From IMG/VR virus record IMGVR_UViG_3300025897_000002: a stretch of DNA of 50,132 nt; one strand, given 5' to 3'. Position 1 is the stretch's first letter. Each line of letters begins with the position of its first letter. Positions 1-50,132 of the stretch are shown piece after piece. Position numbers and translations under genes: made by a program. The DNA comes from a virus. Below the pieces are notes generated by a model that saw only the letters and a program-made list of their open reading frames with translations, searched no databases and was not told the origin of the DNA.

Positions 1-99
1 CTAATTGAAACCACGTTGTTCGCGGCCCTTGAGGGGTCCAGCCAATGACCATGACTGACCCGACCGGCACACCCGAAGAGCGCGATTTGGCGTTCTGCG
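1..99. repeat. Window-end duplication: bases 1-99 identical to 50034-50132 (circular-contig overlap or short terminal redundancy); unique length 50,033 bp
   Basis: Both ends read CTAATTGAAACCACGTTGTTCGCGGCCCTTGAGG...GCGATTTGGCGTTCTGCG; ORFs run across the junction. Confidence 0.95.
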
Positions 100-269
100 T
101 GCGGGCGGCAAAACTCCGGTGCAAGATTCGCAACGGGCACCTGTGTTGGGGGCCGGTCTGTAACTGCTTCGACAAGATGACGATGGAGTGTTGGGACATT
201 GCGGCCAAAAATCACGTTCTGTCGTCGCTGCCTGACTATGACCCGATCATTACCGTAAATGGATGGTAG
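45..269 (+). CDS. small Cys-rich early protein (74 aa)
   Basis: ATG overlaps the stop of the upstream gene across the junction (CAATGA, = 50078-50081). Six Cys. The N-terminus MTMTDPTGTPEE carries the ACCGGCACACCCGA junction motif. Confidence 0.6.
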   Translation: MTMTDPTGTPEERDLAFCVRAAKLRCKIRNGHLCWGPVCNCFDKMTMECWDIAAKNHVLSSLPDYDPIITVNGW

Positions 270-280
270 GAGGACAACCG

Positions 281-595
281 ATGACCGGCACAACCGATGA
301 ACTGGTGGAGAGCGTTCAAGATGGGGGCCTATCTGAGTTCCAGAGTAATCATGTCTGTTATTTTAACAATCGCATTGGTTACGATGAGGATTCCGATGAG
401 ATTATCGCGCAGTGCGGGAAGTGCGGGAAGGAAGGCAGAATCAAGTATTTAGCAAAAGATCGAGTTTGTTGGTCAGCTTACCCAGATAGCGGAGGGCATC
501 GTAAGGAGGTGCCGGTTCGCGGGGATTTCTTGAACCAAGAGACCGTAGACGATGGGGACGATGGCCCTTACACAATGGATGAAGCCGATGAGTGA
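281..595 (+). CDS. small early protein with CGKCG zinc-ribbon-like motif (104 aa)
   Basis: AGGAGG at 268-273 then ATG 281. N-terminus MTGTTDELVESV is near-identical to that of the gene at 49328. Confidence 0.7.
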   Translation: MTGTTDELVESVQDGGLSEFQSNHVCYFNNRIGYDEDSDEIIAQCGKCGKEGRIKYLAKDRVCWSAYPDSGGHRKEVPVRGDFLNQETVDDGDDGPYTMDEADE

Positions 596-1112
596 ACTTG
601 CCACCCTGAAAAAAATTCAACGGGCAGTGTGCCGCCACTATGACATCTCATTACCTGTAATGTTGGGAGATCAACGGTCTCGCAACGTAGCGTGGCCTCG
701 TCAATTGGCAATTTGGATGTCGTCAAAGTTAACCAAGTCTTCAATCTCTTCAATTGCCCAGCACTTTAATCGGGATCATACGACCGCCTTGCATGCCAAA
801 AGAGCGGTTAACGAACGCATGAAGGACGTTAATTCTGAAACATTTAGGGATGCTCAAGTCTTGTTGGGCGAATTTGCCAGCTTTCATTCTTACGGATCGT
901 TGAGACTTGTACCTCTTCCGAAAAAAAGCGTTAAAAAGGAGGAGGTCCGCAAGAGAACAGGAAAAAGGAGGCCCGTAGGGCCACTGCATCCGAGGACGGC
1001 GAAGACCACTAGAAGGTGCCTTAGCTGCTCTGGTTTATTTGAGTCTGAGGGCATACACAACAGGCTGTGTGCATCCTGTAAACACGGGATCAACAACTCA
1101 GCGTTTATTTAA
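588..1112 (+). CDS. DnaA domain IV-like DNA-binding protein with basic linker and C-terminal CxxC-N13-CxxC zinc ribbon; candidate replication initiator or iteron binder
   Basis: LKKIQRAVCRHYDISLPVMLGDQRSRNVAWPRQLAIWMSSKLTKSSISSIAQHFNRDHTTALHAKR aligns by eye to DnaA C-terminal domain signatures (SR..VA.PRQ.A, RDHTT.LHA). Start chosen at ATG 588, overlapping the upstream stop (GCCGATGAGTGA). The track ORF starts at 552. Confidence 0.8.
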   Translation: MSELATLKKIQRAVCRHYDISLPVMLGDQRSRNVAWPRQLAIWMSSKLTKSSISSIAQHFNRDHTTALHAKRAVNERMKDVNSETFRDAQVLLGEFASFHSYGSLRLVPLPKKSVKKEEVRKRTGKRRPVGPLHPRTAKTTRRCLSCSGLFESEGIHNRLCASCKHGINNSAFI

Positions 1113-1642
1113 TTCAGGATGAGCGAAAAGCATTGATACCGAGCGAGCCAGAGTGTGTGAAAAGCAATGCGTTGGAGCGAGCCACAATAATGGAAAAGCA
1201 CAAGTCTCGAGCGAGCCAAAAATGAAGAAAAGCACTCAGTCGGAGCGAGCCAGATATGAGGATCAGCAGGGCCTGTGAGCGAGCCACGTAAAGAGAAGCG
1301 CATATTACGAGAGCGAGCCACTTAGAAGGAAAAGCATGGTGCGAGATCGAGCCAAGAAGAGCGAAAAGCATGCATTCTGAACGAGCCATGACGGCGGAAA
1401 AGCAAAAGAACCGAGCGAGTCAAGCCGTCTGAAAAGCATGGTTCATGAGCGAGCCAGAAGACGGGAAAAGCATTGAGTTAGAGTAAGTCAGATCGGTAGA
1501 AAAGCATCTTGAGAGAGCGAGCCATCAGTCGTGAAAAGCACAGAACCGGAACGAGCCATCAGTCGTAAAAAGCAGAGAACCGGAACGAGCCATACGAGGT
1601 GAAAAGCAACAAATCCGAGCGAGTCAGAATATTGAGAAACCC
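1111..1642 (+). repeat. Iteron array: 15 units of a bipartite 34-bp repeat (box A GAGCGAGCCA, 8-nt gap, box B GAAAAGCA, 8-nt gap)
   Basis: Box A starts at 1141, 1175, 1209, 1243, 1277, 1311, 1345, 1379, 1413, 1447, 1481, 1515, 1549, 1583, 1617 (constant 34-bp step). Box B starts 18 nt after each box A. A partial fused unit lies at 1111-1122. Confidence 0.95.
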
Positions 1643-1868
1643 ATATCCAGTTACTCTTAGCGAGATTGTCCAAGAGTACGAGCGAGACTTAGAGGCCCGT
1701 CGCAGACTTTACCCAGAGCTAGTGAAATCTGGTAAACTGAGGCAGGGGGACGCAGACCGAAGGATCGAGATCTTGGAGTACGGTCTTGCCCGAGAGAAAG
1801 CCAATTTGACGGCAATTAGGGCAAGCGATAACCGGCATTTGGAAAACTCAAGGAAGAAAGGAAAGTAA
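1599..1868 (+). CDS. small conserved early protein, paralogous to the 49164..49328 product
   Basis: Shared motif RRRLYPELVKSGKLRQGDADRRIEILEYGLAREKAN vs MRLVVYPKLVTAKKLTQETADRRIFVLQNVLAREEAN. Start uncertain (GTG 1599 or TTG 1632, both inside the last iterons). Confidence 0.6.
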   Translation: MKSNKSERVRILRNPYPVTLSEIVQEYERDLEARRRLYPELVKSGKLRQGDADRRIEILEYGLAREKANLTAIRASDNRHLENSRKKGK

Positions 1869-1870
1869 AC

Positions 1871-2188
1871 ATGACTGACTTATTTGATTATGAGGAAAGT
1901 CTAAGGCTCAAGTACGAGGGCATGGATCGGGCCGAGGCCAAGGCGGCAACTCCTCTTGAGGAGGCACGGGAAATAGCGAGGCGGATTGCCCTGAAGACCC
2001 CTGACCGGTGTGTATCTGCTGATGACGTTGGACGGGAGCTAAAGCGATTGGGATTACCGTCTAGCTTGGGGCCAGCCACTGGGAGTCTCTTCCGAGGTAA
2101 GGAGTGGGAGTTTACCGGGAGGCGGATTAAGTCGAGGCGGACCAGTAACCATGCTAGGGAAATAAAAGTGTGGCGGCTTAACAATTAG
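1871..2188 (+). CDS. hypothetical protein (105 aa)
   Basis: ATG 2 nt after the upstream stop, preceded by GGAAAG; coding-like composition. Confidence 0.65.
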   Translation: MTDLFDYEESLRLKYEGMDRAEAKAATPLEEAREIARRIALKTPDRCVSADDVGRELKRLGLPSSLGPATGSLFRGKEWEFTGRRIKSRRTSNHAREIKVWRLNN

Positions 2189-2226
2189 GACTAAATCCTT
2201 AACAATTTGGCTTGAATTGATATACT
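2177..2226 (+). promoter_or_regulatory. sigma70-like promoter (-35 TTAACA 2199-2204, 16-nt spacer, extended -10 TGATATACT 2218-2226) overlapped by two CTTAACAATT direct repeats
   Basis: 5/6 match at -35, TATACT at -10 with upstream TG. CTTAACAATT at 2177-2186 and 2198-2207, 21 nt apart. Confidence 0.5.
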
Positions 2227-2522
2227 ACGGGACATCTGCTGAGTTAACTTCATCGATACTGAAGCAGCAGAACCCAGCGCCTAATAAAACCCCATGTTGA
2301 CGAATGTTAATGGATGGGGAGCGCCAGACATCCTGTAGACATCTTTAAGACCTGAAGCGCCAAAAAGCGGCGGCTACCCTAAGCAATCCCCCGTGTGCCC
2401 AACCCCGCCCTAGCAACCCCAAACACAACTAAACACCCATAAGAGAGATAGAGAGAGACCAGTCGTATCAATAGGTCGGGAATAGCGAAATCCCCCTCTT
2501 TCTCCCTTTCTCCCCCCAAACA

Positions 2523-2538
2523 TGTTTCACGTGAAACA
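2523..2538. promoter_or_regulatory. perfect 16-bp palindrome TGTTTCACGTGAAACA (candidate dimeric-regulator site)
   Basis: Self-complementary over all 16 nt. Sits between a C-rich block (2386-2517) and the G-rich GTCGGG cluster (2556-2690). Confidence 0.5.
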
Positions 2539-2555
2539 ATAGACACCCTTGCTGA

Positions 2556-2690
2556 CCTAGTCGGGTCGGGAATGGCGGGTTACTGCGGTTGTCGGGGTGG
2601 TCGGGTCTACACTTTTGCCCCCCTGGTGGGACGTGTCGGGGTCGGGGTCGGGTTTTTCAGTCGGGGTCGGGTTGTCGGGGTCGGGTTCTT
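2556..2690 (+). repeat. GTCGGG repeat cluster A (about 12 copies, + strand only), G-quadruplex-prone
   Basis: GTCGGG at 2560, 2565, 2591, 2600, 2635, 2641, 2647, 2660, 2667, 2674, 2680 (plus 2475). Begins TAGTCGGGTCGGG. Confidence 0.9.
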
Positions 2691-2862
2691 GAGACAACCT
2701 TTGGTTGAACAACTGGGCGGGAATGGCCTCTGGGCCGGGGTATATACCCACCTATGGTTGTATTCGTCCAAATCGACGCGATAATTAGGGCAAAAATAGT
2801 TGTTGTTAGTGCATTGCCCGCATGGGATGATCGGGCGTCGTAAATCCTAGGAGGGATTATCA

Positions 2863-3489
2863 ATGGACGTTCACGTATCAACTATGACTGGCAAGCTAGA
2901 AGGCTTTCGGGCGATCAATAGCAACACGCGAAGCAATCCGTTTTGCCTCAAGATGTACGAGAACGCGACGGACAATGTTATCTGTCGCAAGTGCTATTCC
3001 CATGAAATGCTAAAGGCCTACCGGGCAAACACGGTCCCCGCATTGCAGCGTAACAGCGACGCGCTGTCGCAAGCGTGGGATCCCGGCGATCCAGTGCGCC
3101 TTACTGGCAAAGGCCGCAAAACATTCCAGCCTGGCGAATATGTGCGGATTTCCGGGCATGGCGAGATCGTGAATTCGGCCTATGTCGCCAATGTCATGCG
3201 GATCGTCCGCGAGAACCCGCAAGCGCGTTTTTCTTGGTGGACTAAACGCCACCAGCTAATTCGCCAGTATTGCGAAGCGAACGGGAAACCAGAGAATCTC
3301 ATTCTCGTTTATTCTAATCCGATAGTGGATAAGATAATGACTAAACCGCCCGCGTGGTTTGATAAGGCATTTAATAACATTTCGAAACCGCACGAGGACG
3401 AAAACTGTACGGGTCAAAAATGCCGCGATTGCATGGCTTGCTATGATCCTAAGAGTTCAACCGATGTTATTATTGAAAGGGTGAAATAA
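2863..3489 (+). CDS. hypothetical protein, Cys-rich ends (weak resemblance to the phage GP88-like family)
   Basis: AGGAGGG 8 nt upstream of ATG. N-terminal C..x..CRKCY and C-terminal CTGQKCRDCMACY cysteine clusters. Confidence 0.8.
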   Translation: MDVHVSTMTGKLEGFRAINSNTRSNPFCLKMYENATDNVICRKCYSHEMLKAYRANTVPALQRNSDALSQAWDPGDPVRLTGKGRKTFQPGEYVRISGHGEIVNSAYVANVMRIVRENPQARFSWWTKRHQLIRQYCEANGKPENLILVYSNPIVDKIMTKPPAWFDKAFNNISKPHEDENCTGQKCRDCMACYDPKSSTDVIIERVK

Positions 3490-3689
3490 TGGGATATAAG
3501 CCGATGTTTTTATTTAAGGGTGGGGAGCGTAAGGGTAACGCTCAAGTTTTTTCGACAGAAGAAGAAGCGCGTGAAAGTGCGCTTGCCCGGTTTGTGGTTT
3601 GGACAATGCCAGAGGGTATTGACGTTGAGCCAACGGACGATCCGGTAAACTTTCGCCGCATTGACGGGCGCGATGAGTACCTAGAATAG
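3489..3689 (+). CDS. hypothetical protein (66 aa)
   Basis: TAATG overlap with the upstream gene. Its TAG stop is part of the first TAGTCGGG motif. Confidence 0.7.
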   Translation: MGYKPMFLFKGGERKGNAQVFSTEEEARESALARFVVWTMPEGIDVEPTDDPVNFRRIDGRDEYLE

Positions 3690-3846
3690 TCGGGAGCAAA
3701 TAGTCGGGAGTCGGGGCCCCGCTTAGTCGGGGCCTTTTTTTGTCTTGGTAATAGTCGGGGTCGGGTCGGGGTCGGGTCGGGGTCGGAATAGGGTATTTGG
3801 CCGGGCGGGCCGGGCAGGGCGGACGGGCAGGGCGGACGGGAATCGT
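3686..3846 (+). repeat. GTCGGG repeat cluster B (4 x TAGTCGGG, then GGGGTCGGGTC tandem, then 2 x GGGCAGGGCGGACGG), G-quadruplex-prone
   Basis: GTCGGG at 3689, 3703, 3710, 3726, 3754, 3760, 3765, 3771, 3776 (and GTCGGA at 3782). GGGCAGGGCGGACGG occurs twice in 3815-3846. Confidence 0.9.
3715..3741 (+). terminator. rho-independent terminator
   Basis: GGCCCC (3715-3720), loop GCTTAGTC, GGGGCC (3729-3734), then T7 (3735-3741). Confidence 0.7.
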
Positions 3847-3899
3847 CCCCGCTGGAACAAAAGGTGAACATCCCCGTGTTATTTTCTGGGGAATATATG

Positions 3900-3927
3900 T
3901 TGTTTCTCGTGCAGGGAAATATATACT
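3900..3927 (+). promoter_or_regulatory. candidate promoter (TTGTTT, 16-nt spacer, TATACT) upstream of the DUF932-like gene
   Basis: -10 TATACT at 3922-3927 is identical to the -10 of the 2199-2226 promoter. The -35 is weak (3/6). Confidence 0.35.
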
Positions 3928-3967
3928 GGCTTTGGGCAATTTCGCCCGCACATGAAGGGATATCCAA

Positions 3968-4915
3968 ATGAATAACATCGTGAACCTGTCGCCTTGGTCC
4001 GCCCGCGCTACTGAGGTCACCGCTGATCCGGTTCTGGCCCGGTTCCTCGCACCGGTCGAGCGTCGCCAATTGTTTGACGCCGCTGGCAACGAGGCGGCCC
4101 ATGTTGGCCTGTATGATGACGCCAAGTGCGTCGGCGTGGTTTCGCCTACCTATCACGTTCTGCAAAACGCCACCGCGCATGATGTCGTGACGGACGCAAT
4201 ACGGGGATCCGGCTATCACGGTCAGTTAGACGTTAAGCCGGTACAGGGCGGTCGCTTTGGCGGTCGCTGGGGCACTCGCTACATTCTTGCGGACCATGGA
4301 TTCGCAATTCAGCAGCCGGGGAAATACCTCGCAACCCGCGTCGATCTCGAGCTATTCTTGCGGACCTCTTACGACGGCAGCACCGGCACCAGCATCGGCG
4401 TTTCGATGTTTGACCGCTTTTGCGATAACGGCATGGTGTTTCACTCTCAGGTGCAAGCTTTCCGCGCCAAGCACACCCGCTATGCTGAAGACAACCTGTT
4501 CCGCGTCACGCCCCAGCAAGTCGAGGTTGCGCTTGCCGAGGCTCAAGAGCAAGCCGAGATCATCAGGCGATGGGCGGAAACACGGATCACCGCAACGCAA
4601 GCCCGCGAATTGCTCAAAGGCCTCAAGGTCAAAGAGCATAAGGTCGAGGACAAACGGCCCGTGTCCGAGCGCACACCGCGAAACGAGTTAGAATTGCTCA
4701 TGGCCGGGTTCGAGCAAGAAAGCGAAGACCGGGGTCAAACCTTGTGGGCGTTGGTTTCCGCTGTAACGGCATGGTCCACGCCACGCGATAACGTCGCGGA
4801 TATGCCCACCGTCCGCCGGGGCCGGTCGCAGGATAGTCTTTCGCTCGCCGAAGGCCGTCAGGATAGGACGGCGGATTGGGTACTGGTACTGCAAAAGATG
4901 GCCCGCGCCGCGTAG
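3968..4915 (+). CDS. DUF932-like protein (phage/plasmid family of unknown function)
   Basis: VSPTYHVLQN...GGRFG...LRTSYDGSTGTSIGVSMFDRFCDNGMVF matches the DUF932 pattern (Y.v.qN ... NShDGs.a ... R.vC.NGmv). The TAG stop is part of a TAGTCGGG motif. Confidence 0.8.
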   Translation: MNNIVNLSPWSARATEVTADPVLARFLAPVERRQLFDAAGNEAAHVGLYDDAKCVGVVSPTYHVLQNATAHDVVTDAIRGSGYHGQLDVKPVQGGRFGGRWGTRYILADHGFAIQQPGKYLATRVDLELFLRTSYDGSTGTSIGVSMFDRFCDNGMVFHSQVQAFRAKHTRYAEDNLFRVTPQQVEVALAEAQEQAEIIRRWAETRITATQARELLKGLKVKEHKVEDKRPVSERTPRNELELLMAGFEQESEDRGQTLWALVSAVTAWSTPRDNVADMPTVRRGRSQDSLSLAEGRQDRTADWVLVLQKMARAA

Positions 4916-5095
4916 TCGGGTCACATACTGAAAACTGGGCTCGCCTCGTGCGGGCCCTTTTTTTGTGTCGGGTCGGGCTGTCGGGTCGGGATGGGTCGGG
5001 TCGGGCTCGATGCTGTCGGGTCGGGTCGGGTCTGGGGCTCGGTTCCTGGGTCTTGGGTCTTGGGCCCTGGCCCCCGGCCCTTGGTTACTGGGCCC
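4913..5095 (+). repeat. GTCGGG repeat cluster C (about 11 copies) followed by TGGGTCTTGGG/GGCCC repeats
   Basis: GTCGGG at 4915, 4967, 4972, 4980, 4985, 4995, 5000, 5015, 5020, 5025, then TGGGTCTTGGGTCTTGGGCCCTGG. Confidence 0.9.
4937..4964 (+). terminator. rho-independent terminator
   Basis: GGGCTCGC (4937-4944), loop CTCGT, GCGGGCCC (4950-4957, one G-U pair), then T7 (4958-4964). Confidence 0.7.
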
Positions 5096-5227
5096 TCTAT
5101 TTCTTCTTTTCCTGGCCTGATCTGGCCTGATCTGGGTGCACTAAAAGTAGTAGACAGCGCCCGGTCCAGGCATTAAGCTGATCACAGCTTAACCGCATCG
5201 GTTAAGTGGAAACCTTGGAGATAGAAT

Positions 5228-5548
5228 ATGAGCGAAATGATCAAAACGGTGGGCGGCCTTTATACGCCCGAGGAACTGGCCTCTGCACACGCGGAGCGAG
5301 GTGAACGAATTGAAAATCTGGAACGCGACAAGGCGTTCCTCGAGAGGCGCAATGCCGAACTAGAAACGGTCGCCGAAGCTGTTACGACGCTGGTAAATTT
5401 TGCGGCCAAAGGCGAAGACCTCAACGAACTTCGCTCCGATCTCAACGAACTCCGCTCCGATCTTGATGACGTCGAGGACACTAGCTCCAAGCTTGACGAC
5501 GTCGTGCGTGCCATGCGGGATGCCGCCGCAGAGCTTGCATCAGTCTAA
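5228..5548 (+). CDS. very acidic coiled-coil protein (106 aa) with internal 21-bp tandem duplication
   Basis: GGAG 8 nt upstream of the ATG. DLNELRS duplicated (nt 5420-5440 and 5441-5461). Rich in E/D. Confidence 0.75.
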   Translation: MSEMIKTVGGLYTPEELASAHAERGERIENLERDKAFLERRNAELETVAEAVTTLVNFAAKGEDLNELRSDLNELRSDLDDVEDTSSKLDDVVRAMRDAAAELASV

Positions 5549-5590
5549 TCCAAGCCGGGGGCGGGCATGGTACCTGCCCCCTACCACCCC

Positions 5591-5923
5591 ATGAAAGGAA
5601 ACAAGGTGAAAATATTCAAGTTCAAGTTATCCACCCGCATCGGCTCCACCGCCCGCGAGTGGCTGGCCGCAAAGGCCGCAGCATCGCAGGTCCGCCGCGA
5701 CATCGAGGCCATCACCCGCGCCCTGATCGCGGACGCGCCGCGCAACATCCGCGACCGCCTCGCCCAGCTTGAGGCCGAACTCAAGGCGGCAGAAGCAACC
5801 GCGAAGGCATACGAACCTGACCTGCGTGATCTGCCTCACGGCTCCCACGTCGTGCCCGGGCTCGGCTCAGTCGAGCGCGGATATCGCAGCGAATCGGAAA
5901 CGCTGCGGGCGAAGGTGAACTAG
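5591..5923 (+). CDS. hypothetical coiled-coil protein
   Basis: Start is ATG 5591 or GTG 5606. The GTG is favoured by comparison with the paralogous intergenic element at 5924-5988. Confidence 0.65.
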   Translation: MKGNKVKIFKFKLSTRIGSTAREWLAAKAAASQVRRDIEAITRALIADAPRNIRDRLAQLEAELKAAEATAKAYEPDLRDLPHGSHVVPGLGSVERGYRSESETLRAKVN

Positions 5924-5985
5924 AAGCCTAATCAACCGGGGGCTGGCAAGGTGCTGGCCCCCACCAAACCAAGAAGGGAAAAACA

Positions 5986-6114
5986 GTGAACAGTAGAGCC
6001 AGAAGACGACGCAACCGTTTTATATTCAGAGCGATAATGTCGATTTACATTCCATGCGGTGTTTTGGTTTGCTGCTATGGAGTCTGGATTGTGTTCCAAC
6101 AGCTAACCTTCTAA
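5986..6114 (+). CDS. possible 42-aa membrane miniprotein (GTG start), not in the ORF track
   Basis: VNSRARRRRNRFIFRAIMSIYIPCGVLVCCYGVWIVFQQLTF: Arg-rich N-terminus plus one hydrophobic helix. GGGAAAAA RBS-like element in the same relative position as upstream of GTG 5606. Followed by a hairpin and T-run. Confidence 0.35.
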   Translation: MNSRARRRRNRFIFRAIMSIYIPCGVLVCCYGVWIVFQQLTF

Positions 6115-6128
6115 TCCAACCGAGGGGC

Positions 6129-6166
6129 TGGGTCCCTTTGGGGCCTAGCTTTTCTGTCGGGTCGGG
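6129..6166 (+). terminator. weak terminator hairpin plus T-run, immediately followed by GTCGGGTCGGG (cluster D)
   Basis: GGTCCC (6130-6135), TTT, GGGGCC (6139-6144), AGCTTTTCT, then GTCGGG at 6156 and 6161. Confidence 0.4.
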
Positions 6167-13394: not shown

Positions 13395-15796
13395 TGGCTA
13401 TTATTGAAAACGAAGAGACCCCAGAGAACCCTGTAGGGATGGCTGCTGAAGTCCAAGAAGAGGTTCTTCCGGAGGATATGATTTCGGAAGAGAACGAAGA
13501 CGGCAGCATTTCCTTCTTTGTCGAGGAAGAGCCCAAAGAAGAAGACGTTCCCTTCGACGCCAATCTTGCTGAATTTATAGATGAAACTTCTTTAGGTGCT
13601 CTTTCCAATAAACTTATTGGTGATGTGCGCGGAGACTTGGACAGTAGGTCAGATTGGGAAGAGACCTACAAAAGGGGTTTGGAGTCTCTTGGTATTAAAT
13701 ACGAAGACTTTCGAGACTTTCCCTTTGAGGGCGCGAGCAGCGTAACGCACCCCTTGTTGGCTGAGAGCGTCACTCAGTTTCAGGCTCAAGCCTACAAGGA
13801 GCTTCTGCCTTCGGGTGGCCCTGTCCGTACTCAGATTCTTGGGACGACTACTCCGGAAGTAGAGGCTCAGGCAGACCGTGTCGCTGAGTTTATGAACTAT
13901 CAAGTTACGGTAGAGATGAAAGAGTACGATCCAGAAACGGATATGATGCTTTTCTATCTTCCGTTGAGCGGCTCTGCATTTAAGAAGGTCTACTATGACC
14001 GCGCTCTGGACCGCCCGGTCAGCAAGTTCTGCCCCGCTGAAGACATTATTGTTCCCTATGGAACTACGGACATTCAGACGGCACAGAGGATTGCTCAGCG
14101 CATTAGTATGCCGCTGAACGAATTAAAGAAGCTGCAATTTATAGGGTTCTATCGTGACGTTGAGGTTCTTGCCTCCGACAACGTCATTTATGGAAGCTCG
14201 ATCCGCGAACAAGAAGATGAGCTTGAGGGCGTCCACCCAAGTTATAGCGACGAAAACCTTACGGTCTATGAGCTTCACGCATTTATTGATCTTCCTGACT
14301 TTCCTCACCGCGACAACGAGGGTGAGGAGACCGGGATTGCCCTGCCGTATATCGTTACGATAGATGACGGATCGGGGAAAATTCTTAGTATTCGCCGGAA
14401 TTACTACCCAGAAGATCCGTTTACTAAGATAGAATACTTTGTTCACTACAAGTTCTTGCCCGGACTTGGCTTCTACGGATTTGGTTTGCCCCACATGATC
14501 GGTGGGTTAGCCCGTGCCTCAACTAGCATTCTTCGCCAGCTAATAGATGCCGGGACGCTAGCTAATTTGCCCGGAGGGTTTAAGCAACGCGGAGTGCAAC
14601 TCGCGGAAGAAGAGAACCCAATCAGGCCGGGAGAGTTTAGGGATATTGACGCGCCGTCTGGTCTTCGGGATGCAATTATGCCGCTCCCGTTTAAGGAGCC
14701 AAGCCCGACCTTGTTGCAACTTCTTTCCTTGCTGGTTCAAGACGGACGTAGGTTTGTGTCCCTCGCGGACCAAAACCTTAGCGACATGAACAACGAGACC
14801 CCGGTGGGAACCACGGTGGCTTTGATTGAGCGCGGCTCTCGCGTGATGTCTTCTATTCACAAGCGTTGCCATTATGCTCAAAAGCAAGAGTTTATTCTTC
14901 TTGCAGACATTCTAGGTCGATACCTCCCTCCGGAGTACCCTTACAGCTTAGGCAACGTAAATCGCTTGATTAAATCTGCGGACTTTGATGGCCGTGTTGA
15001 TATCATTCCGGTTTCTGATCCTAATATTTTCAGTATGTCTCAGCGGGTTGCGCTAGCCCAGAACCAACTGCAATTGGTTCAAGCTAACCCGCAAGTTCAC
15101 GGCGAGAAGGGTATCTACGAGGCTTATCGTCGAATGTACGAGGCTTTGAATGTAAGAAACATTGAGCAGCTTCTTCCGCCGCCTCCACAACCGCAACCAA
15201 AAGATCCTGCTATTGAAAACAACGACTTCACAAGGGGTCTAATTGGTCAGGCGTTCGAGGGTCAAAATCACGATGCTCACATCAAGGCTCACATGGCCCT
15301 TATGGTCCTCCCGGTAGTTCAGACTAATCCGACCATTGTTGCCAACGTCAATGCACACATCATGCAACACCTTGGTCTAAAGGCTCGTGAGGTCGTGACC
15401 AGCACCATGATGGAGCAAGTGGTTCAGCTTATGCAATCTCAGGGGGGTGTTATCGCTCCTGAGCAACAAGCTGCTCTTGCTAGCGAAATTGAGGATCGTA
15501 TCGCTGAGGTCGTAGCGACAATGACAGAGGGCTTTGCTCAGTCTCAAGAGCCGGAAAATCAGAAAGACCCCTTAGTTGCAATTCGAGAGCAGGAGGTCGC
15601 TTTGGCCGCTCGCAAGTTGCAGCTTGAAGGAGAGAAATTTAAGCAAAAATCCTCCCTTGAAAGTTCTAAAGCTGCCGCTCAAAATATAGTGGACATTGCC
15701 CGTGTTGAGGCTCAAAACAGGGCTATAACTGAGCGAAGCTCAATCGCAAGAGAGCGGATTGCTGCAAATCTAGTCGGCAAAATTGGTCGGCGTTAG
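13394..15796 (+). CDS. portal protein (800 aa)
   Basis: Large protein immediately after terL, acidic N-terminus, size and position typical of podovirus portals. Confidence 0.8.
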   Translation: MAIIENEETPENPVGMAAEVQEEVLPEDMISEENEDGSISFFVEEEPKEEDVPFDANLAEFIDETSLGALSNKLIGDVRGDLDSRSDWEETYKRGLESLGIKYEDFRDFPFEGASSVTHPLLAESVTQFQAQAYKELLPSGGPVRTQILGTTTPEVEAQADRVAEFMNYQVTVEMKEYDPETDMMLFYLPLSGSAFKKVYYDRALDRPVSKFCPAEDIIVPYGTTDIQTAQRIAQRISMPLNELKKLQFIGFYRDVEVLASDNVIYGSSIREQEDELEGVHPSYSDENLTVYELHAFIDLPDFPHRDNEGEETGIALPYIVTIDDGSGKILSIRRNYYPEDPFTKIEYFVHYKFLPGLGFYGFGLPHMIGGLARASTSILRQLIDAGTLANLPGGFKQRGVQLAEEENPIRPGEFRDIDAPSGLRDAIMPLPFKEPSPTLLQLLSLLVQDGRRFVSLADQNLSDMNNETPVGTTVALIERGSRVMSSIHKRCHYAQKQEFILLADILGRYLPPEYPYSLGNVNRLIKSADFDGRVDIIPVSDPNIFSMSQRVALAQNQLQLVQANPQVHGEKGIYEAYRRMYEALNVRNIEQLLPPPPQPQPKDPAIENNDFTRGLIGQAFEGQNHDAHIKAHMALMVLPVVQTNPTIVANVNAHIMQHLGLKAREVVTSTMMEQVVQLMQSQGGVIAPEQQAALASEIEDRIAEVVATMTEGFAQSQEPENQKDPLVAIREQEVALAARKLQLEGEKFKQKSSLESSKAAAQNIVDIARVEAQNRAITERSSIARERIAANLVGKIGRR

Positions 15797-41936: not shown

Positions 41937-42800
41937 ATGGAAGTACACAACAAGCACAATTTGCCTTATCCGTTCGTCAAAGCACTGTCGAGCAACCACC
42001 GACCCTTAGTGGAAAAACGGGTCAGGGTGACATCCCTCATAAAGCCTCCGCGCATGACTGCCCTCGAAAGGCAGAACTGGGACAACATGGAGGTTGATGT
42101 ATCGGAAATGATGCATGCCCTTTTAGGAACAGCATTTCATGGGGTGCTTGAAGACAACTCTGATGGCGATCCGGACATGGAAGCTAAAGAGCTTAGTCTG
42201 GCAGCGGATTACTTTGGCTGGAACCTCACTGGAACGATGGATCACCTGTCGAAGTCCGGGGTGATTACCGACTGGAAGACAACCTCTGTGTGGAGCGCAG
42301 TGTTTGGCAATGATGGTTGGGAGCCTCAGTTGAATCTTTACGCCCAACTTGCCCGCGACAATGGGTATGAGATTAAGGGCCTAAAAATCTTTTCTTACTT
42401 TAGGGATTGGAACGAGCGCCGCTCGCTTGATGGGGGCGACTACCCCGAACATATGTGGGGCAGTTACGACATACCGCTGTGGTCTGAAGAAAAGGCCAAG
42501 CTCTACATTCAAGAGCAGATAACCACGCTGGAGGCGGCGCTTGATGGAGAGGGCGTTCTTTGCAGCGATGAAGACCGATGGGCAACGCCAGACCGTTACG
42601 CAGTAATGAAGCCAGGAGCTAAGAGGGCTACCCGTGTGCTAGACACAGAAGAGGAGGCTAAAGAATACCTTTACACAAAGGTTGGTAAGGGTAAAATAGA
42701 GGTTCGATTTGGCGAAAAGTTTAAGCGATGTGAGCGATACTGCAATGCAAGCGCATTTTGCAAGCAGTATCAGGAAGGTACTGGAAATGAATTTGCTTGA
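41937..42800 (+). CDS. PD-(D/E)XK nuclease, Cas4/RecB-like, with C-terminal Cys cluster (recombination exonuclease)
   Basis: GGAGAGGAAAG RBS; MDHL...ITDWKTT...QLNLYAQL core motifs; C...CERYCNASAFC cluster. Confidence 0.75.
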   Translation: MEVHNKHNLPYPFVKALSSNHRPLVEKRVRVTSLIKPPRMTALERQNWDNMEVDVSEMMHALLGTAFHGVLEDNSDGDPDMEAKELSLAADYFGWNLTGTMDHLSKSGVITDWKTTSVWSAVFGNDGWEPQLNLYAQLARDNGYEIKGLKIFSYFRDWNERRSLDGGDYPEHMWGSYDIPLWSEEKAKLYIQEQITTLEAALDGEGVLCSDEDRWATPDRYAVMKPGAKRATRVLDTEEEAKEYLYTKVGKGKIEVRFGEKFKRCERYCNASAFCKQYQEGTGNEFA

Positions 42801-43446
42801 TTTGAGTGCGCCTTTTGACCCTGACGAAATCGACTGGAGAGTTGGGGCAACCACCAAAGATAAGTCTAAGGGAATTGCGTTAGCGTACATTGACGCCCGC
42901 GCTGTAATGGAGCGTCTTGATAGCGTTTGCGGCCCAGAGAATTGGCAGTGCAAGTACAGCCATGCTGGGGAAAAGACTGTCTGCGAAATCCTTATAAAGT
43001 GCGGCGAGGAATGGGTAGCAAAGTCCAATGGGGCTGGCGATACTGACGTTGAAGGCCCAAAGGGGGCGTTGTCAGATGCCTTCAAGCGGGCTGCTGTCGT
43101 TTGGGGAGTGGGTCGTTATCTCTATTCTTTAGACAGCCCATGGGTCAGACTTGAAGCGAGAGGCAGATCTTACGTCATCGCTAAAGATGAATTGCCACGC
43201 TTGAAGGGGATGCTTGGAGGGCGAGTAAAAACAGACACAAAGACCCCTGCAATTCTCGTTGAGACCATTGTTGGTGATGTAGAGAAAAACCTGAAGTCCT
43301 GCGGGTCTCTCGAAGAGTTAAAGGATGTTTGGGTAAGCTCATCCGTTAACTTGAAGAAAGTAATGGATTTTGACAAAGGTCAGCATGAGGCCCTTGTCAA
43401 AACGAAAGACCAAATGAAAAACGCGCTTACAAAAAAGGAAGTTTAG
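42787..43446 (+). CDS. Rad52-like single-strand annealing protein
   Basis: IALAYIDARAVMERLDSVCGPENWQCKY...SDAFKRAAVVWGVGRYLY; start at ATG 42787 overlapping the upstream gene end. Confidence 0.8.
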   Translation: MNLLDLSAPFDPDEIDWRVGATTKDKSKGIALAYIDARAVMERLDSVCGPENWQCKYSHAGEKTVCEILIKCGEEWVAKSNGAGDTDVEGPKGALSDAFKRAAVVWGVGRYLYSLDSPWVRLEARGRSYVIAKDELPRLKGMLGGRVKTDTKTPAILVETIVGDVEKNLKSCGSLEELKDVWVSSSVNLKKVMDFDKGQHEALVKTKDQMKNALTKKEV

Positions 43447-43447
43447 A

Positions 43448-43873
43448 ATGTCTGGTGTGAATAAAGTAACTCTTCTGGGTAATCTTGGTAAAGACCCGGA
43501 TGTCAGGCAGACGCAAAACGGTGGGTCTGTTGTTAGTTTTTCTGTTGCTACTTCTGAGACATGGAAAGACAAGGCGACTGGAGAGCGAAAGGAAAAGACA
43601 GAGTGGCACCGGGTTGTTAGTTTCAGCAAAGGAATCAATGCCTTCGTTGAAAGCTACGTTAAAAAGGGGTCAAAGGTTTATGTTGAAGGAAAGCTACAAA
43701 CGCGCAAATGGACTGATAAGTCAGGCGTTGAAAAGTACACAACTGAAATTGTTATTCCTGCTTATAACGGAGACCTTCAACTGGTTGACAAAAAGAGCGG
43801 TGAGTCTTTTTCTCCTCCTGAAAAGAAAACTCAGGAAATTACTCCAGACCTTGATGATGAAATCCCGTTTTAG
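43448..43873 (+). CDS. ssb: single-stranded DNA-binding protein
   Basis: NKVTLLGNLGKDPDVR...TEWHRVV...GSKVYVEGKLQTRKW OB-fold signature and acidic tail DLDDEIPF. Confidence 0.95.
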   Translation: MSGVNKVTLLGNLGKDPDVRQTQNGGSVVSFSVATSETWKDKATGERKEKTEWHRVVSFSKGINAFVESYVKKGSKVYVEGKLQTRKWTDKSGVEKYTTEIVIPAYNGDLQLVDKKSGESFSPPEKKTQEITPDLDDEIPF

Positions 43874-44198
43874 ATCAAGGCGTTACAGGCAATATGTAGC
43901 GAGTTTGGGTTGCGTCATTTGTGGCGCAGAAGCTCAAGCCGCTCACGTTAGAATTGGGCACTATGCAATGGGCTTAAAGCCTAGCGACGACCGCGTAGTT
44001 CCTTTGTGCCCTTATCACCACACGGATGGTCCTGATGCACAACACAAGAGCAACGAACGAGACTGGTGGCAGCGACAAGGGATTGACCCCCTCAAGCTCG
44101 CCCAGCTTATCCGAGAGACTAACGGCGACTATGAATCCGGCTGGTTCGTCGTCCGGGAGGCAAAGCGACTTGCCGGAGCAGTGGCGTCTAGCGAGTGA
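43854..44198 (+). CDS. DUF968/HNH-like nuclease-family protein
   Basis: YVASLGCVICG...AHV...GLKPSDDRVVPLCPYHH pattern; start ATG 43854/43857 overlaps the ssb end. The upstream part of track ORF 43485..44198 is out-of-frame overlap with ssb. Confidence 0.7.
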   Translation: MMKSRFRSRRYRQYVASLGCVICGAEAQAAHVRIGHYAMGLKPSDDRVVPLCPYHHTDGPDAQHKSNERDWWQRQGIDPLKLAQLIRETNGDYESGWFVVREAKRLAGAVASSE

Positions 44199-45077: not shown

Positions 45078-45267
45078 AGACGCCCTTGATCAAATCGAAA
45101 AAGAAACAGGCGCTCAGCACGCGCCAGAGGACATCCTTCGCGCTTGTGAAGAGTGTGGGTGCGTAGCTTTCTTGGTGACGGGTAGCGGAAAATTACAATG
45201 TGTGCAGTGTGAAAAATACGACGAAAGCACTATGGTTTATTTCATGGGGGACGCTGACGCGAATTAG
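45070..45267 (+). CDS. small CxxC...CxxC zinc-ribbon protein (65 aa)
   Basis: CEECGC...CVQCEKY; ATG 45070 overlaps the upstream stop (ATGATTAA). Confidence 0.65.
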   Translation: MIKDALDQIEKETGAQHAPEDILRACEECGCVAFLVTGSGKLQCVQCEKYDESTMVYFMGDADAN

Positions 45268-45728
45268 TTCAGGTTCTTAGGCTTAAAAACCCCATCGCCC
45301 GTTTCTTCAAGAGCAACAGTTTTTGCGCTAGCAATGTTTTCTATTTCTTGAATGCGTTTGGCAAGTTGCTCTTTGGTAAGCATCTTCACGGGATCTTCTC
45401 TTTGAGAGTTTAGAAGACCGCCCATCTGCGCCCTTAACTTTTCCGCCTGCACTGCCGCAGCGTATTGCCCGTTTTCGATGGCCCCGTTGCGGATGTTAAG
45501 CAGATCTCTCATGCTTCTTTCAGCAGAGATGCCGAACTGAGCAGCAACATCATCTTGCATCTCTATCCGAGCAGCAACGATCTTTGGCTCTTTCAGCAAC
45601 CGGCTTGCAGCTTGTGCGGGTTGGGCAAATCCGGCTCTACGAGCAGCTTCTGTCTGAGAGCAGTTGCCGTACACCAATTCCTGAACAAACTTTCTTTGCC
45701 GCTCGTTTAGCTGATCTTCTTCACTCAT
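45264..45728 (-). CDS. terS: terminase small subunit-like protein (Terminase_2 type HTH)
   Basis: LNERQRKFVQELVYGNCSQTEAARRAGFAQPAQAASRLLKEPKIVAARIE matches the Terminase_2 N-terminal signature; lies about 16.6 kb from terL across the circular junction, on the other strand. Confidence 0.75.
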   Translation of the reverse strand: MSEEDQLNERQRKFVQELVYGNCSQTEAARRAGFAQPAQAASRLLKEPKIVAARIEMQDDVAAQFGISAERSMRDLLNIRNGAIENGQYAAAVQAEKLRAQMGGLLNSQREDPVKMLTKEQLAKRIQEIENIASAKTVALEETGDGVFKPKNLN

Positions 45729-49749: not shown

Positions 49750-50081
49750 CCGGCACACCCGATGGCACTGGTGGGGGTAGCGGCATGACCCACGAACAGA
49801 TGGAGCGAGACGCACGCAAAGTGATCTTTGCACAAGGGGTGGGTAATGCCAGGGGTGTTGGAAATCCAGCGATTGAACGGGCCATTCCACAAGCCCGCAA
49901 CGTCCTGTCTCTCTTAGAGGAAGTGGAGCGGATACGGGACGCAGCAACGATATCCGTAACCATTGCCGGTCATGCACGGCGCGCAATCAGTAGCGGGCAA
50001 ATCCACGACAAAGAAGTCGGCAGGAAGGTTGAGCTAATTGAAACCACGTTGTTCGCGGCCCTTGAGGGGTCCAGCCAATGA
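49746..50081 (+). CDS. hypothetical early protein (111 aa)
   Basis: ATGA overlap with the XRE gene stop; MTGTPDG N-terminus with the junction motif; the track ORF starts at 49701. Confidence 0.65.
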   Translation: MTGTPDGTGGGSGMTHEQMERDARKVIFAQGVGNARGVGNPAIERAIPQARNVLSLLEEVERIRDAATISVTIAGHARRAISSGQIHDKEVGRKVELIETTLFAALEGSSQ

Positions 50082-50132
50082 CCATGACTGACCCGACCGG
50101 CACACCCGAAGAGCGCGATTTGGCGTTCTGCG
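50034..50132. repeat. second copy of the window-end duplication (= 1-99); contains a partial duplicate of the CDS starting at 45 (here 50078-50132)
   Basis: Identical to 1-99. Confidence 0.95.

Follow-up and report, generated by a model that had tools for sequence, protein, structure and literature searches.

Short G-rich repeats in a podovirus genome appear to belong to a widespread, clade-specific and polar repeat system that is seemingly undescribed; we found no description of such arrays in the searchable literature. The repeats are tandem or closely spaced copies of the hexamer GTCGGG, all in one direction, and their orientation is tied to the genome, with terL as reference, and not to local transcription. 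From comparison of related phages we regard them as a probable lineage-specific family of one-directional cis-acting DNA elements, and tentatively propose that they act as polar, Chi-like recombination boundaries between exchangeable accessory-gene cassettes.

Results

A hexamer confined to four intergenic clusters

The window, by which we mean the whole 50,132-nt stretch that was analysed, is a complete podovirus genome of 50,033 bp in a circular assembly (its last 99 nt, 50034-50132, are identical to its first 99, 1-99). The phage is a member of the HTVC023P supergroup, and its TerL is about 60% identical to those of 023Pt_psg01, the Pelagibacter phages HTVC027P and HTVC023P, and the lake phage DSL-LC04. 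GenBank phages had no DNA similarity to window positions 1-8000, and no GenBank phage protein similar to the DUF932 protein of the window was found. Pfam, PHROG and NCBIfam scans of the neighbouring ORFs gave DnaA_C, GP88, DUF932 and a methyltransferase as the only functional leads, and the subset of window ORFs scanned contained no match to a primase, helicase or DNA polymerase. At 41937-44198 lie genes for an Erf-like annealing protein, an exonuclease and an HNH nuclease.

An exact search of both strands found 45 GTCGGG sites in the window, 33 on the plus strand and 12 on the minus strand. The plus-strand sites begin at 2475, 2560-2685 (11 sites), 3689-3781 (9), 4915-5030 (10) and 6156/6161 (2), and no others occur on that strand anywhere outside 2475-6166, other intergenic regions included; the minus-strand sites are scattered, and two of them (59 and 50092) are a single site in the terminal repeat, leaving 11 unique. 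No other hexamer present 15 or more times is as spatially concentrated as GTCGGG, whose 33 plus-strand copies all lie within 4 kb. The first-pass annotation had read about 12, 10, 11 and 2 copies in the four clusters (about 35 in total), each within one or two of the exact counts, and its description of clusters A to D as same-strand and intergenic was confirmed by the search and by gene calls on the source contig. Tandem Repeats Finder periods in the arrays were 5, 6 and 11.

Local GC content, raised in that annotation as something that might alone explain the clustering, was examined by shuffling. Dinucleotide shuffles of the whole window yielded 20.75 +/- 4.8 sites on both strands, and none of 100 reached 45; shuffles of the four intergenic regions alone, keeping their own dinucleotide content, yielded 1.47 +/- 1.2 in total (maximum 7) against 31 observed, and the three shuffled cluster cores about 1 copy each (maximum 5) against 9-11. 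Because these region-confined shuffles give far fewer copies, local G+C and dinucleotide content are not the cause of the clustering.

The clusters separate four small consecutive transcription units: the GP88-family gene with a 66-codon ORF; the DUF932 gene; the coiled-coil ORFs with a small membrane ORF; and a 114-codon membrane ORF (Table 1). Arrays mostly fill the spacers between the terminator and the next promoter of individually transcribed accessory genes upstream of terL; in the window they start at a stop codon or 3-15 nt past a T-run, leaving 147-198 nt between the array end and the start codon that follows. The first unit of cluster B (3689) overlaps the TAG stop of the 66-codon ORF, starting on its G; four units stand before or inside the terminator and a perfect 11-nt block repeated three times (GTCGGGGTCGG) follows it, placing units of cluster B inside the terminator and on both its flanks. 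Cluster C begins in the same way, with unit 1 (4915) on the G of the DUF932 TAG stop, and its other nine units begin 3 nt past the terminator T-run. At cluster D a terminator-like hairpin lies immediately 5' of the two units. The arrays themselves have no G+C-rich hairpin followed by a T-run, so they are not intrinsic terminators; separate canonical terminators stand just upstream. Nor do they match replication iterons, their units being 5-6 nt against about 17-22 bp or longer. Rfam covariance models run on window positions 1-9000 gave one sub-threshold match (STnc100, 20.8 bits against a gathering score of 47). To the left of cluster A, positions 2381-2538 form a sharp local change from C-rich to G-rich sequence inside a 674-nt non-coding region.

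Table 1. Positions of arrays and neighbouring features in the window and, in the last three rows, in relatives
Feature	Position	Strand	Remarks
C-rich tracts (2381-2428 and 2489-2520)	2381-2520	G4-capable on -	left of cluster A
Isolated GTCGGG unit	2475-2480	+	in the 674-nt non-coding region preceding cluster A; exact search
Perfect 16-nt palindrome TGTTTCACGTGAAACA	2523-2538		just left of cluster A
Cluster A, 11 units (2560-2685), spacings 5 to 35 nt	2556-2690	+	upstream of GP88-family gene
GP88-family gene	2863-3489	+	Pfam and gene calls
66-codon ORF	3489-3689	+	transcription unit shared with GP88-family gene
Cluster B, 9 exact units and one degenerate GTCGGA	3686-3790	+	exact search
Intrinsic terminator of GP88/ORF66 unit, 9-bp stem then T7	3713-3743	+	terminator consensus scan
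Secondary G+C-rich repeat (GGCAGGGCGGACG x3.2), G4-capable	3799-3840	+	between cluster B and the next promoter region
DUF932 gene	3968-4915	+	ends in TAG stop
Cluster C, 10 units	4913-5030	+	exact search
Intrinsic terminator of DUF932 gene, 8-bp stem then T7	4937-4964	+	terminator consensus scan
Secondary repeats, GGGTCTT x5 and CTGGCCTGAT x2.4	5026-5135	+	3' of cluster C
Two coiled-coil ORFs and small membrane ORF	5228-5548 (one coiled-coil ORF)		one transcription unit
Terminator-like hairpin, 10 pairs including two G-T, loop TTT, then TTTTCT	6127-6155	+	read by eye; absent from the consensus-scan list
Cluster D, two overlapping units (GTCGGGTCGGG)	6156-6166	+	upstream of ORF 6313-6657
114-codon membrane ORF	6313-6657		downstream of cluster D
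Array embedded in methyltransferase gene, L115	4703-4770		on reverse complement of stored locus
Array embedded in methyltransferase gene, L020	9767-9834		on reverse complement of stored locus
Array embedded in methyltransferase gene, L048	~4940-5010		on reverse complement of stored locus

Other repeats and sequence biases were seen in the same genome. A 34-nt iteron-like repeat, GAGCGAGCCA-N7-GAAAAGCA-N9, is present in about 14-15 copies at 1107-1626 (the repeat finder lists 13 overlapping 78-nt copies), directly 3' of a gene (552-1112) for a protein with a DnaA C-terminal domain and a zinc ribbon. Five inverted copies lie 5.5 kb away at 7156-7333, and the two sets bracket the whole GTCGGG region; they may be a replication origin or a partition site. 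A 21-nt tandem duplication at 5417-5458, within the coiled-coil ORF 5228-5548, repeats the peptide LNELRSD. Between the array region and terL, on the minus strand, a 353-aa protein (9406-10467) has an N-terminal Fis-type helix-turn-helix (HTH_8); it matches the PHROG 'DNA repair exonuclease' strongly and metallophosphatase weakly (Pfam E = 0.0068, short of the curated cutoff), and is a possible candidate DNA-binding protein. The palindromic hexamers CAGCTG, CTGCAG, GCCGGC, AACGTT, TGGCCA and CGGCCG are each absent from the 50 kb, with 13-16 expected in genes, whereas GATC (162) and GANTC (111) are frequent; this avoidance resembles that of restriction sites and could help host identification.

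Arrays in related phages

An exact 17-mer of cluster B is present in at least 119 IMG/VR contigs, nearly all with 8-48 same-strand copies within a few kb. The G+C content of these contigs runs from 31 to 72%, but about 27 of them exceed 0.6 and at least one of those (L083) looks like a different, coding phenomenon, leaving a secure range of about 31-62%. At 80 of the loci terS and a small nuclease gene lie on the array strand, and because they have these two genes in common we place the 80 loci in the supergroup of the window. Four cultured or deposited relatives had no arrays. When 80 TerL relatives were sampled irrespective of the motif, arrays were seen in about 8, in every case 2-9 kb upstream of terL and on its strand.

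In a neighbour-joining tree of TerL the array-bearing phages fall in one half, with a few array-less members among them, and the half containing HTVC023P, HTVC027P and 023Pt_psg01 has no arrays at all. Array-bearing TerL proteins are only about 60% identical in amino-acid sequence, and their phages range from 33 to 52% G+C. Because array-bearing phages fill one half of the tree at such divergence and at 35-52% G+C, their distribution indicates that the trait is old and has been maintained. Scanning 185,579 bacterial and archaeal genomes with a 22-mer gave just 39 contigs, whose G+C was 65-78% in every case and never low or mid, and so no clue to the host. Arrays in DNA of low or mid G+C are found in viruses only.

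Three further observations concern these relatives. Many metagenomic contigs (L014, L020, L050, L057, L062, L069, L071 and L127) start or stop inside an array or beside one, probably because short-read assembly fails there, or possibly because genuine DNA ends lie there. Array-less HTVC023P (L122) has same-strand repeats of its own in the equivalent spacers (11319-11866, 12372-12566 and 14887-15305), including CTAGGAAA five times upstream of terS and a TTGAGAATA...CGAAAA unit of about 20-33 nt six times, and a leader motif, ACTAACAAA, ahead of several start codons. A 12-nt palindrome, GAACAATTGTTC, or its half-site recurs beside (A/T)TCGGG arrays in L140 (about 1988-4576) and L148 (about 1640-1792), and may be an operator.

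Orientation follows terL

Arrays lie on the terS strand at those same 80 loci, and on the terL strand at 17 of 17 loci that include terL. The order at the 80 loci is terS(+), nuclease(+), array, GP88 on the minus strand, array, further cassettes with arrays, and terL(+). GP88 in these relatives is a minus-strand frame (Pfam E = 1e-34), whereas in the window it lies on the plus strand, and the direction of the arrays is the same in both. Minus-strand units keep the order terminator, array, promoter along their own direction, the array being inverted relative to transcription. In about 24 relatives an array even lies antisense inside the minus-strand gene of a C5 DNA methyltransferase, immediately ahead of the GFPCQ motif, where CCCGAC is read as Pro-Asp in stretches such as LPDFPDSRPD.

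Because orientation follows terL and not the flanking gene, an RNA-level or ordinary promoter-bound role is unlikely. We rejected as a general role both an RNase site and the binding of a TRAP-like ring protein to RNA, to which the 5-6-nt period might point, since the arrays occupy terminator-to-promoter spacers of units on both strands and do not flip with gene direction. The minus-strand GP88 and methyltransferase cases likewise separate the arrays from the stoperators of mycobacteriophage L5, which are oriented with transcription and consist of 13-bp sites that occur singly and bind the immunity repressor. Stoperators resemble the arrays as many short asymmetric sites in short intergenic spaces with orientation-dependent action; the arrays differ in their 6-nt tandem units, in an orientation independent of the flanking gene, and in that no repressor was found within 10 kb upstream of terL.

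Confinement to the terS-terL interval, always in the direction of terL, would also suit packaging or genome-end signals, recognized by TerS in the manner of pac or giving telomere-like protection at headful ends. The largest array (11-16 units) is directly 3' of terS and the small nuclease gene in the 80 loci, arrays are 1.1-1.5 kb apart (about 2-3% of the genome), and the pac site of phage P1 is built from hexamer repeats. We nevertheless consider a packaging role very unlikely: terS of the window (45264-45728) is encoded on the opposite strand, 7 kb from the arrays by way of the circular junction; a genome with four to six separate pac sites would be without precedent; and TerS is equally present in array-less relatives.

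Unit sequence, turnover and same-strand depletion

Across relatives the conserved unit is (G)TCGGG, the T (-1) being present in 83% of units and the G before it (-2) in 78%, with variable flanks. Some lineages use ATCGGG or TTCGGG units; the invariant core is TCGGG. Clusters have 2 to 16 units at spacings of 5, 6, 7, 9, 12 or 16 nt, most commonly 5 and then 6; low-GC phages have lone units in AT-rich spacers, at spacings of 7, 12 or 16 nt. A run of at least five T lies within 40 nt upstream of 45 of 247 arrays, against 6 of 247 downstream, and many arrays begin 2-15 nt past a terminator T-run. The recognition site of the T7 gp4 primase is 5'-GGGTC-3', and (GGGTC)n reads as its tandem. We rejected T7-type primase sites as an explanation: the ATCGGG and TTCGGG units around the TCGGG core lack GTC, the window ORFs scanned had no primase match, and relatives that encode a primase have no arrays.

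Arrays turn over fast yet keep their position. A near-identical strain (L127) is without one 11-nt unit of cluster B, and in relatives at 95-98% protein identity the arrays are rearranged at the same positions. Conservation in related phages, which the first-pass annotation had listed as a check, holds for hexamer and position; copy number and the G-quadruplex motif vary. Such copy-number differences between near-identical strains, in tandem 5-6-nt units that are classic slippage substrates, are what neutral microsatellites would show, spread by duplication and tolerated in non-coding DNA. This reading is hard to credit, as it would have to yield one hexamer in one orientation despite TerL identity of about 60% and G+C of 33-52%; discrete non-tandem units also occur, and neither depletion of the hexamer elsewhere nor polar breakpoints are expected of junk.

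That depletion is real in the window and suggestive elsewhere. The 51 plus-strand genes of the window contain no sense GTCGGG, against 7.25 +/- 2.6 in 1000 synonymous-codon shuffles, none of which reached zero, and 9 antisense copies against 10.2 expected. GTCGGG ranks 34th of 3948 hexamers in depletion, the stronger cases being palindromic restriction-type words. For terL and portal genes from further phages with arrays the counts are 1 against 6. Per-family counts are confounded by single conserved positions, and no depletion was visible when all array-bearing loci were pooled together with intergenic DNA and high-GC contigs. Evasion of type III or ISP restriction by strand bias was rejected, since the 11 non-array sites share one orientation but the arrays supply the opposite one.

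G-quadruplex potential

The first-pass annotation had pointed to runs that satisfy the G3+N1-7 x4 rule for intramolecular G-quadruplexes (G4). For clusters A to C this was upheld by motif search and by folding: the plus strand of the window has 15 overlapping canonical motifs, all in clusters A to C, and G4-aware minimum-free-energy folding places quadruplexes in the same three clusters with gains of 7 to 22 kcal/mol, and none in D. One of its two examples was misjudged, as GGGGTCGGGGTCGGG alone has only three G-tracts and obeys the rule only together with the preceding GGGACGTGTC. As a conserved feature the motif did not hold up, being found in 59% of mid-GC and 33% of low-GC related clusters and absent from the other 41% and 67%. 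Framing the G-rich strand as non-template and RNA-like needs qualification, as arrays mostly lie past the terminator T-run and before the next promoter, and their orientation is constant beside minus-strand genes.

G4- or R-loop-prone DNA, the main idea of the first-pass annotation, could nonetheless act without a dedicated protein as a one-way block to RNA polymerase or the replisome, making the arrays backup terminators, insulators or fork barriers. Such a block would be polar and host-independent, which fits the wide G+C range; folding agrees with the confinement of the canonical plus-strand motifs to A-C, and many arrays start just past a T-run. We think this account quite unlikely, given the clusters that have no motif, the two or three units of cluster D and of many relatives, and the probable lack of transcription through most array-bearing spacers. 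The TC between G-tracts is moreover conserved, which a loop would not need, and depletion concerns the single hexamer and not G-runs, which are not avoided in the sense direction (GGGG, 169 sense against 119 antisense).

Tandem G-tracts on one strand, or sites for terminator proteins, also form polar blocks in immunoglobulin switch-region pentamers, mitochondrial CSBII and the Sal-box/TTF-I terminator arrays of rDNA. These resemble the phage arrays in lying in untranscribed spacer directly after a unit and in being polar and recombination-prone; they differ in being eukaryotic or organellar, and the arrays differ from them in conserved loop bases and in the frequent absence of a canonical G4. 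G4 cannot be a conserved requirement, and G-tract folding may contribute to a polar block.

Homology blocks often end in or just to the right of arrays

Breakpoints were taken as the ends of BLAST blocks of at least 88% identity and at least 300 bp beyond which homology did not resume within 400 nt. In this set, which consists of phylogenetically non-independent metagenomic contigs and marks where homology ends and not where exchange starts, 77 of 189 right-hand block ends lie inside an array or 0 to +200 nt to its right (29 inside, 13 within 60 nt and 35 at 61-200 nt), against 12 of 189 at -200 to -1. Left-hand ends show no peak (19 of 160 at 0 to +200 and 13 at -200 to -1). The asymmetry is present at the array beside the GP88 start (20 against 1) and is kept at the first array after terS, whose right neighbour is the 3' end of a convergent gene and not a fast-evolving promoter (22 against 0). 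The window itself gives examples: homology to L120 and L121 stops at 5033-5035, the edge of cluster C, and homology to L121 restarts exactly at 6156, in cluster D.

Discussion

The data point to a hexamer signal read at the DNA level in one direction, for which multiplicity counts more than arrangement and whose effect on the DNA that relatives share is one-sided. The independent behaviour of the units, at varied spacings and numbers, fits probabilistic reading by a moving enzyme. Only a one-ended mechanism fits, because exchange of a cassette between two arrays would break homology on both sides, which is not seen.

Setting out from the observed clustering, polarity relative to terL, hexamer conservation, turnover, depletion and breakpoints, we infer a nuclease, its attenuation and strand invasion, as follows. 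A DNA end or break would form to the right of an array, and a helicase-nuclease would resect from it toward the left. The enzyme would be attenuated as the units of the G-rich plus strand pass through it; a low reading probability per unit would call for tandem copies, and G-tract folding may help. The surviving 3' tail would then end in array sequence that every related phage has in common, and could invade a co-infecting relative and copy the DNA to the right of that relative's array. Accessory-gene cassettes would be exchanged, the junction being sharp where the array lies and diffuse further to the right.

Among the four roles listed in the first-pass annotation, oriented Chi-like signals and recombination hot spots are thus the best supported, by polarity and by one-sided breakpoints. 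Chi sites, like the arrays, are short (5-8 nt), G-rich, asymmetric and used in one orientation; their reading probability is low, so that tandem copies are additive, and they form a polar recombination boundary. A polar effect on recombination and on the DNA retained is indicated for the arrays indirectly, through homology ends, by the breakpoint asymmetry at their right side. In Caulobacter, each Chi site is read with a probability of about 0.23, and when 15 putative Chi sites are inserted as an array, AddAB is attenuated in only one of the two orientations (PMC5443536). The one alphaproteobacterial Chi that we compared, that of Caulobacter, is GCGGTGGT (PMC5443536) and not GTCGGG; more generally, GTCGGG is not known to match any Chi. 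Two further differences weaken a Chi-like reading: Chi words are species-specific, so that one word common to hosts of 33-52% G+C would be unusual, and host genomes are enriched in Chi over their whole length, whereas the phage word is depleted on the array strand outside the arrays, which a Chi role does not predict.

A variant that we hold to be unlikely would make the arrays a polar DNA punctuation mark owned by the phage clade and read by a dedicated phage machine for recombination, end processing, ejection or packaging.

A strong rival, although we rate its chances as rather low, is that the arrays are sites for a sequence-specific DNA-binding protein, of phage or host, that co-regulates or insulates accessory and early cassettes as an activator or repressor array or as a polar roadblock comparable to L5 stoperators or to the TTF-I Sal-box terminators of rDNA spacers. 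Conservation of the exact hexamer in AT-rich contexts across 33-52% G+C would fit such a protein, as would the confinement of arrays to one set of consecutive transcription units and the different direct repeats in equivalent spacers of array-less relatives such as HTVC023P. Where relatives are low in G+C, a TATA(T/A)ACACA-like element stands about 27-47 nt downstream of the last unit, and sense-strand depletion would suit a polar roadblock. The period of 5-6 bp is, however, shorter than the footprint of known repeat-binding repressors, array orientation is constant when the flanking gene flips, the distance from array to the following promoter-like element or start codon varies in the window, and one-sided breakpoints are not predicted. 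Within 10 kb upstream of terL we found no protein family specific to array-bearing phages, only antisense or array-derived pseudo-ORFs, and GP88, the most constant neighbour, was rejected as the partner since it is also present in array-less HTVC023P. In favour of regulation, genes of the terS-terL interval of HTVC027P have unusual early timing (PMC12753301).

Recombination boundaries around small accessory genes would have a counterpart in T4-type phages. There, PeSL cassettes, modules of an early promoter and a stem-loop that flank accessory ORFs, have reportedly been proposed to mediate modular shuffling. As with the arrays, small variable accessory genes of a hyperplastic region lie between repeated terminator and promoter modules; unlike the arrays, these modules are promoter-hairpin units of about 50-70 nt that contain no tandem G-rich hexamers, are not reported to be polar to one side, and belong to an unrelated phage family.

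We suggest that polar boundaries, if this is what the arrays are, would explain the reshuffling of the hypervariable accessory region upstream of terL, which carries methyltransferase, GP88, DUF932, DUF1281 and DUF3085 genes, and would provide a simple sequence marker of cassette borders in viromes. If instead they are read by a binding protein, they would define a new regulon and a new mode of DNA recognition based on 5-6-nt tandem units. A dedicated punctuation mark, if that reading is true, would protect incoming DNA ends and drive one-ended swapping of anti-defence and accessory cassettes across phages of very different hosts, a phage-owned analogue of Chi combined with integron-like cassette exchange. 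There is also a practical warning, that array sites often break assemblies. The arrays are a non-random signal, long maintained, in an ecologically dominant and very abundant group of marine phages.
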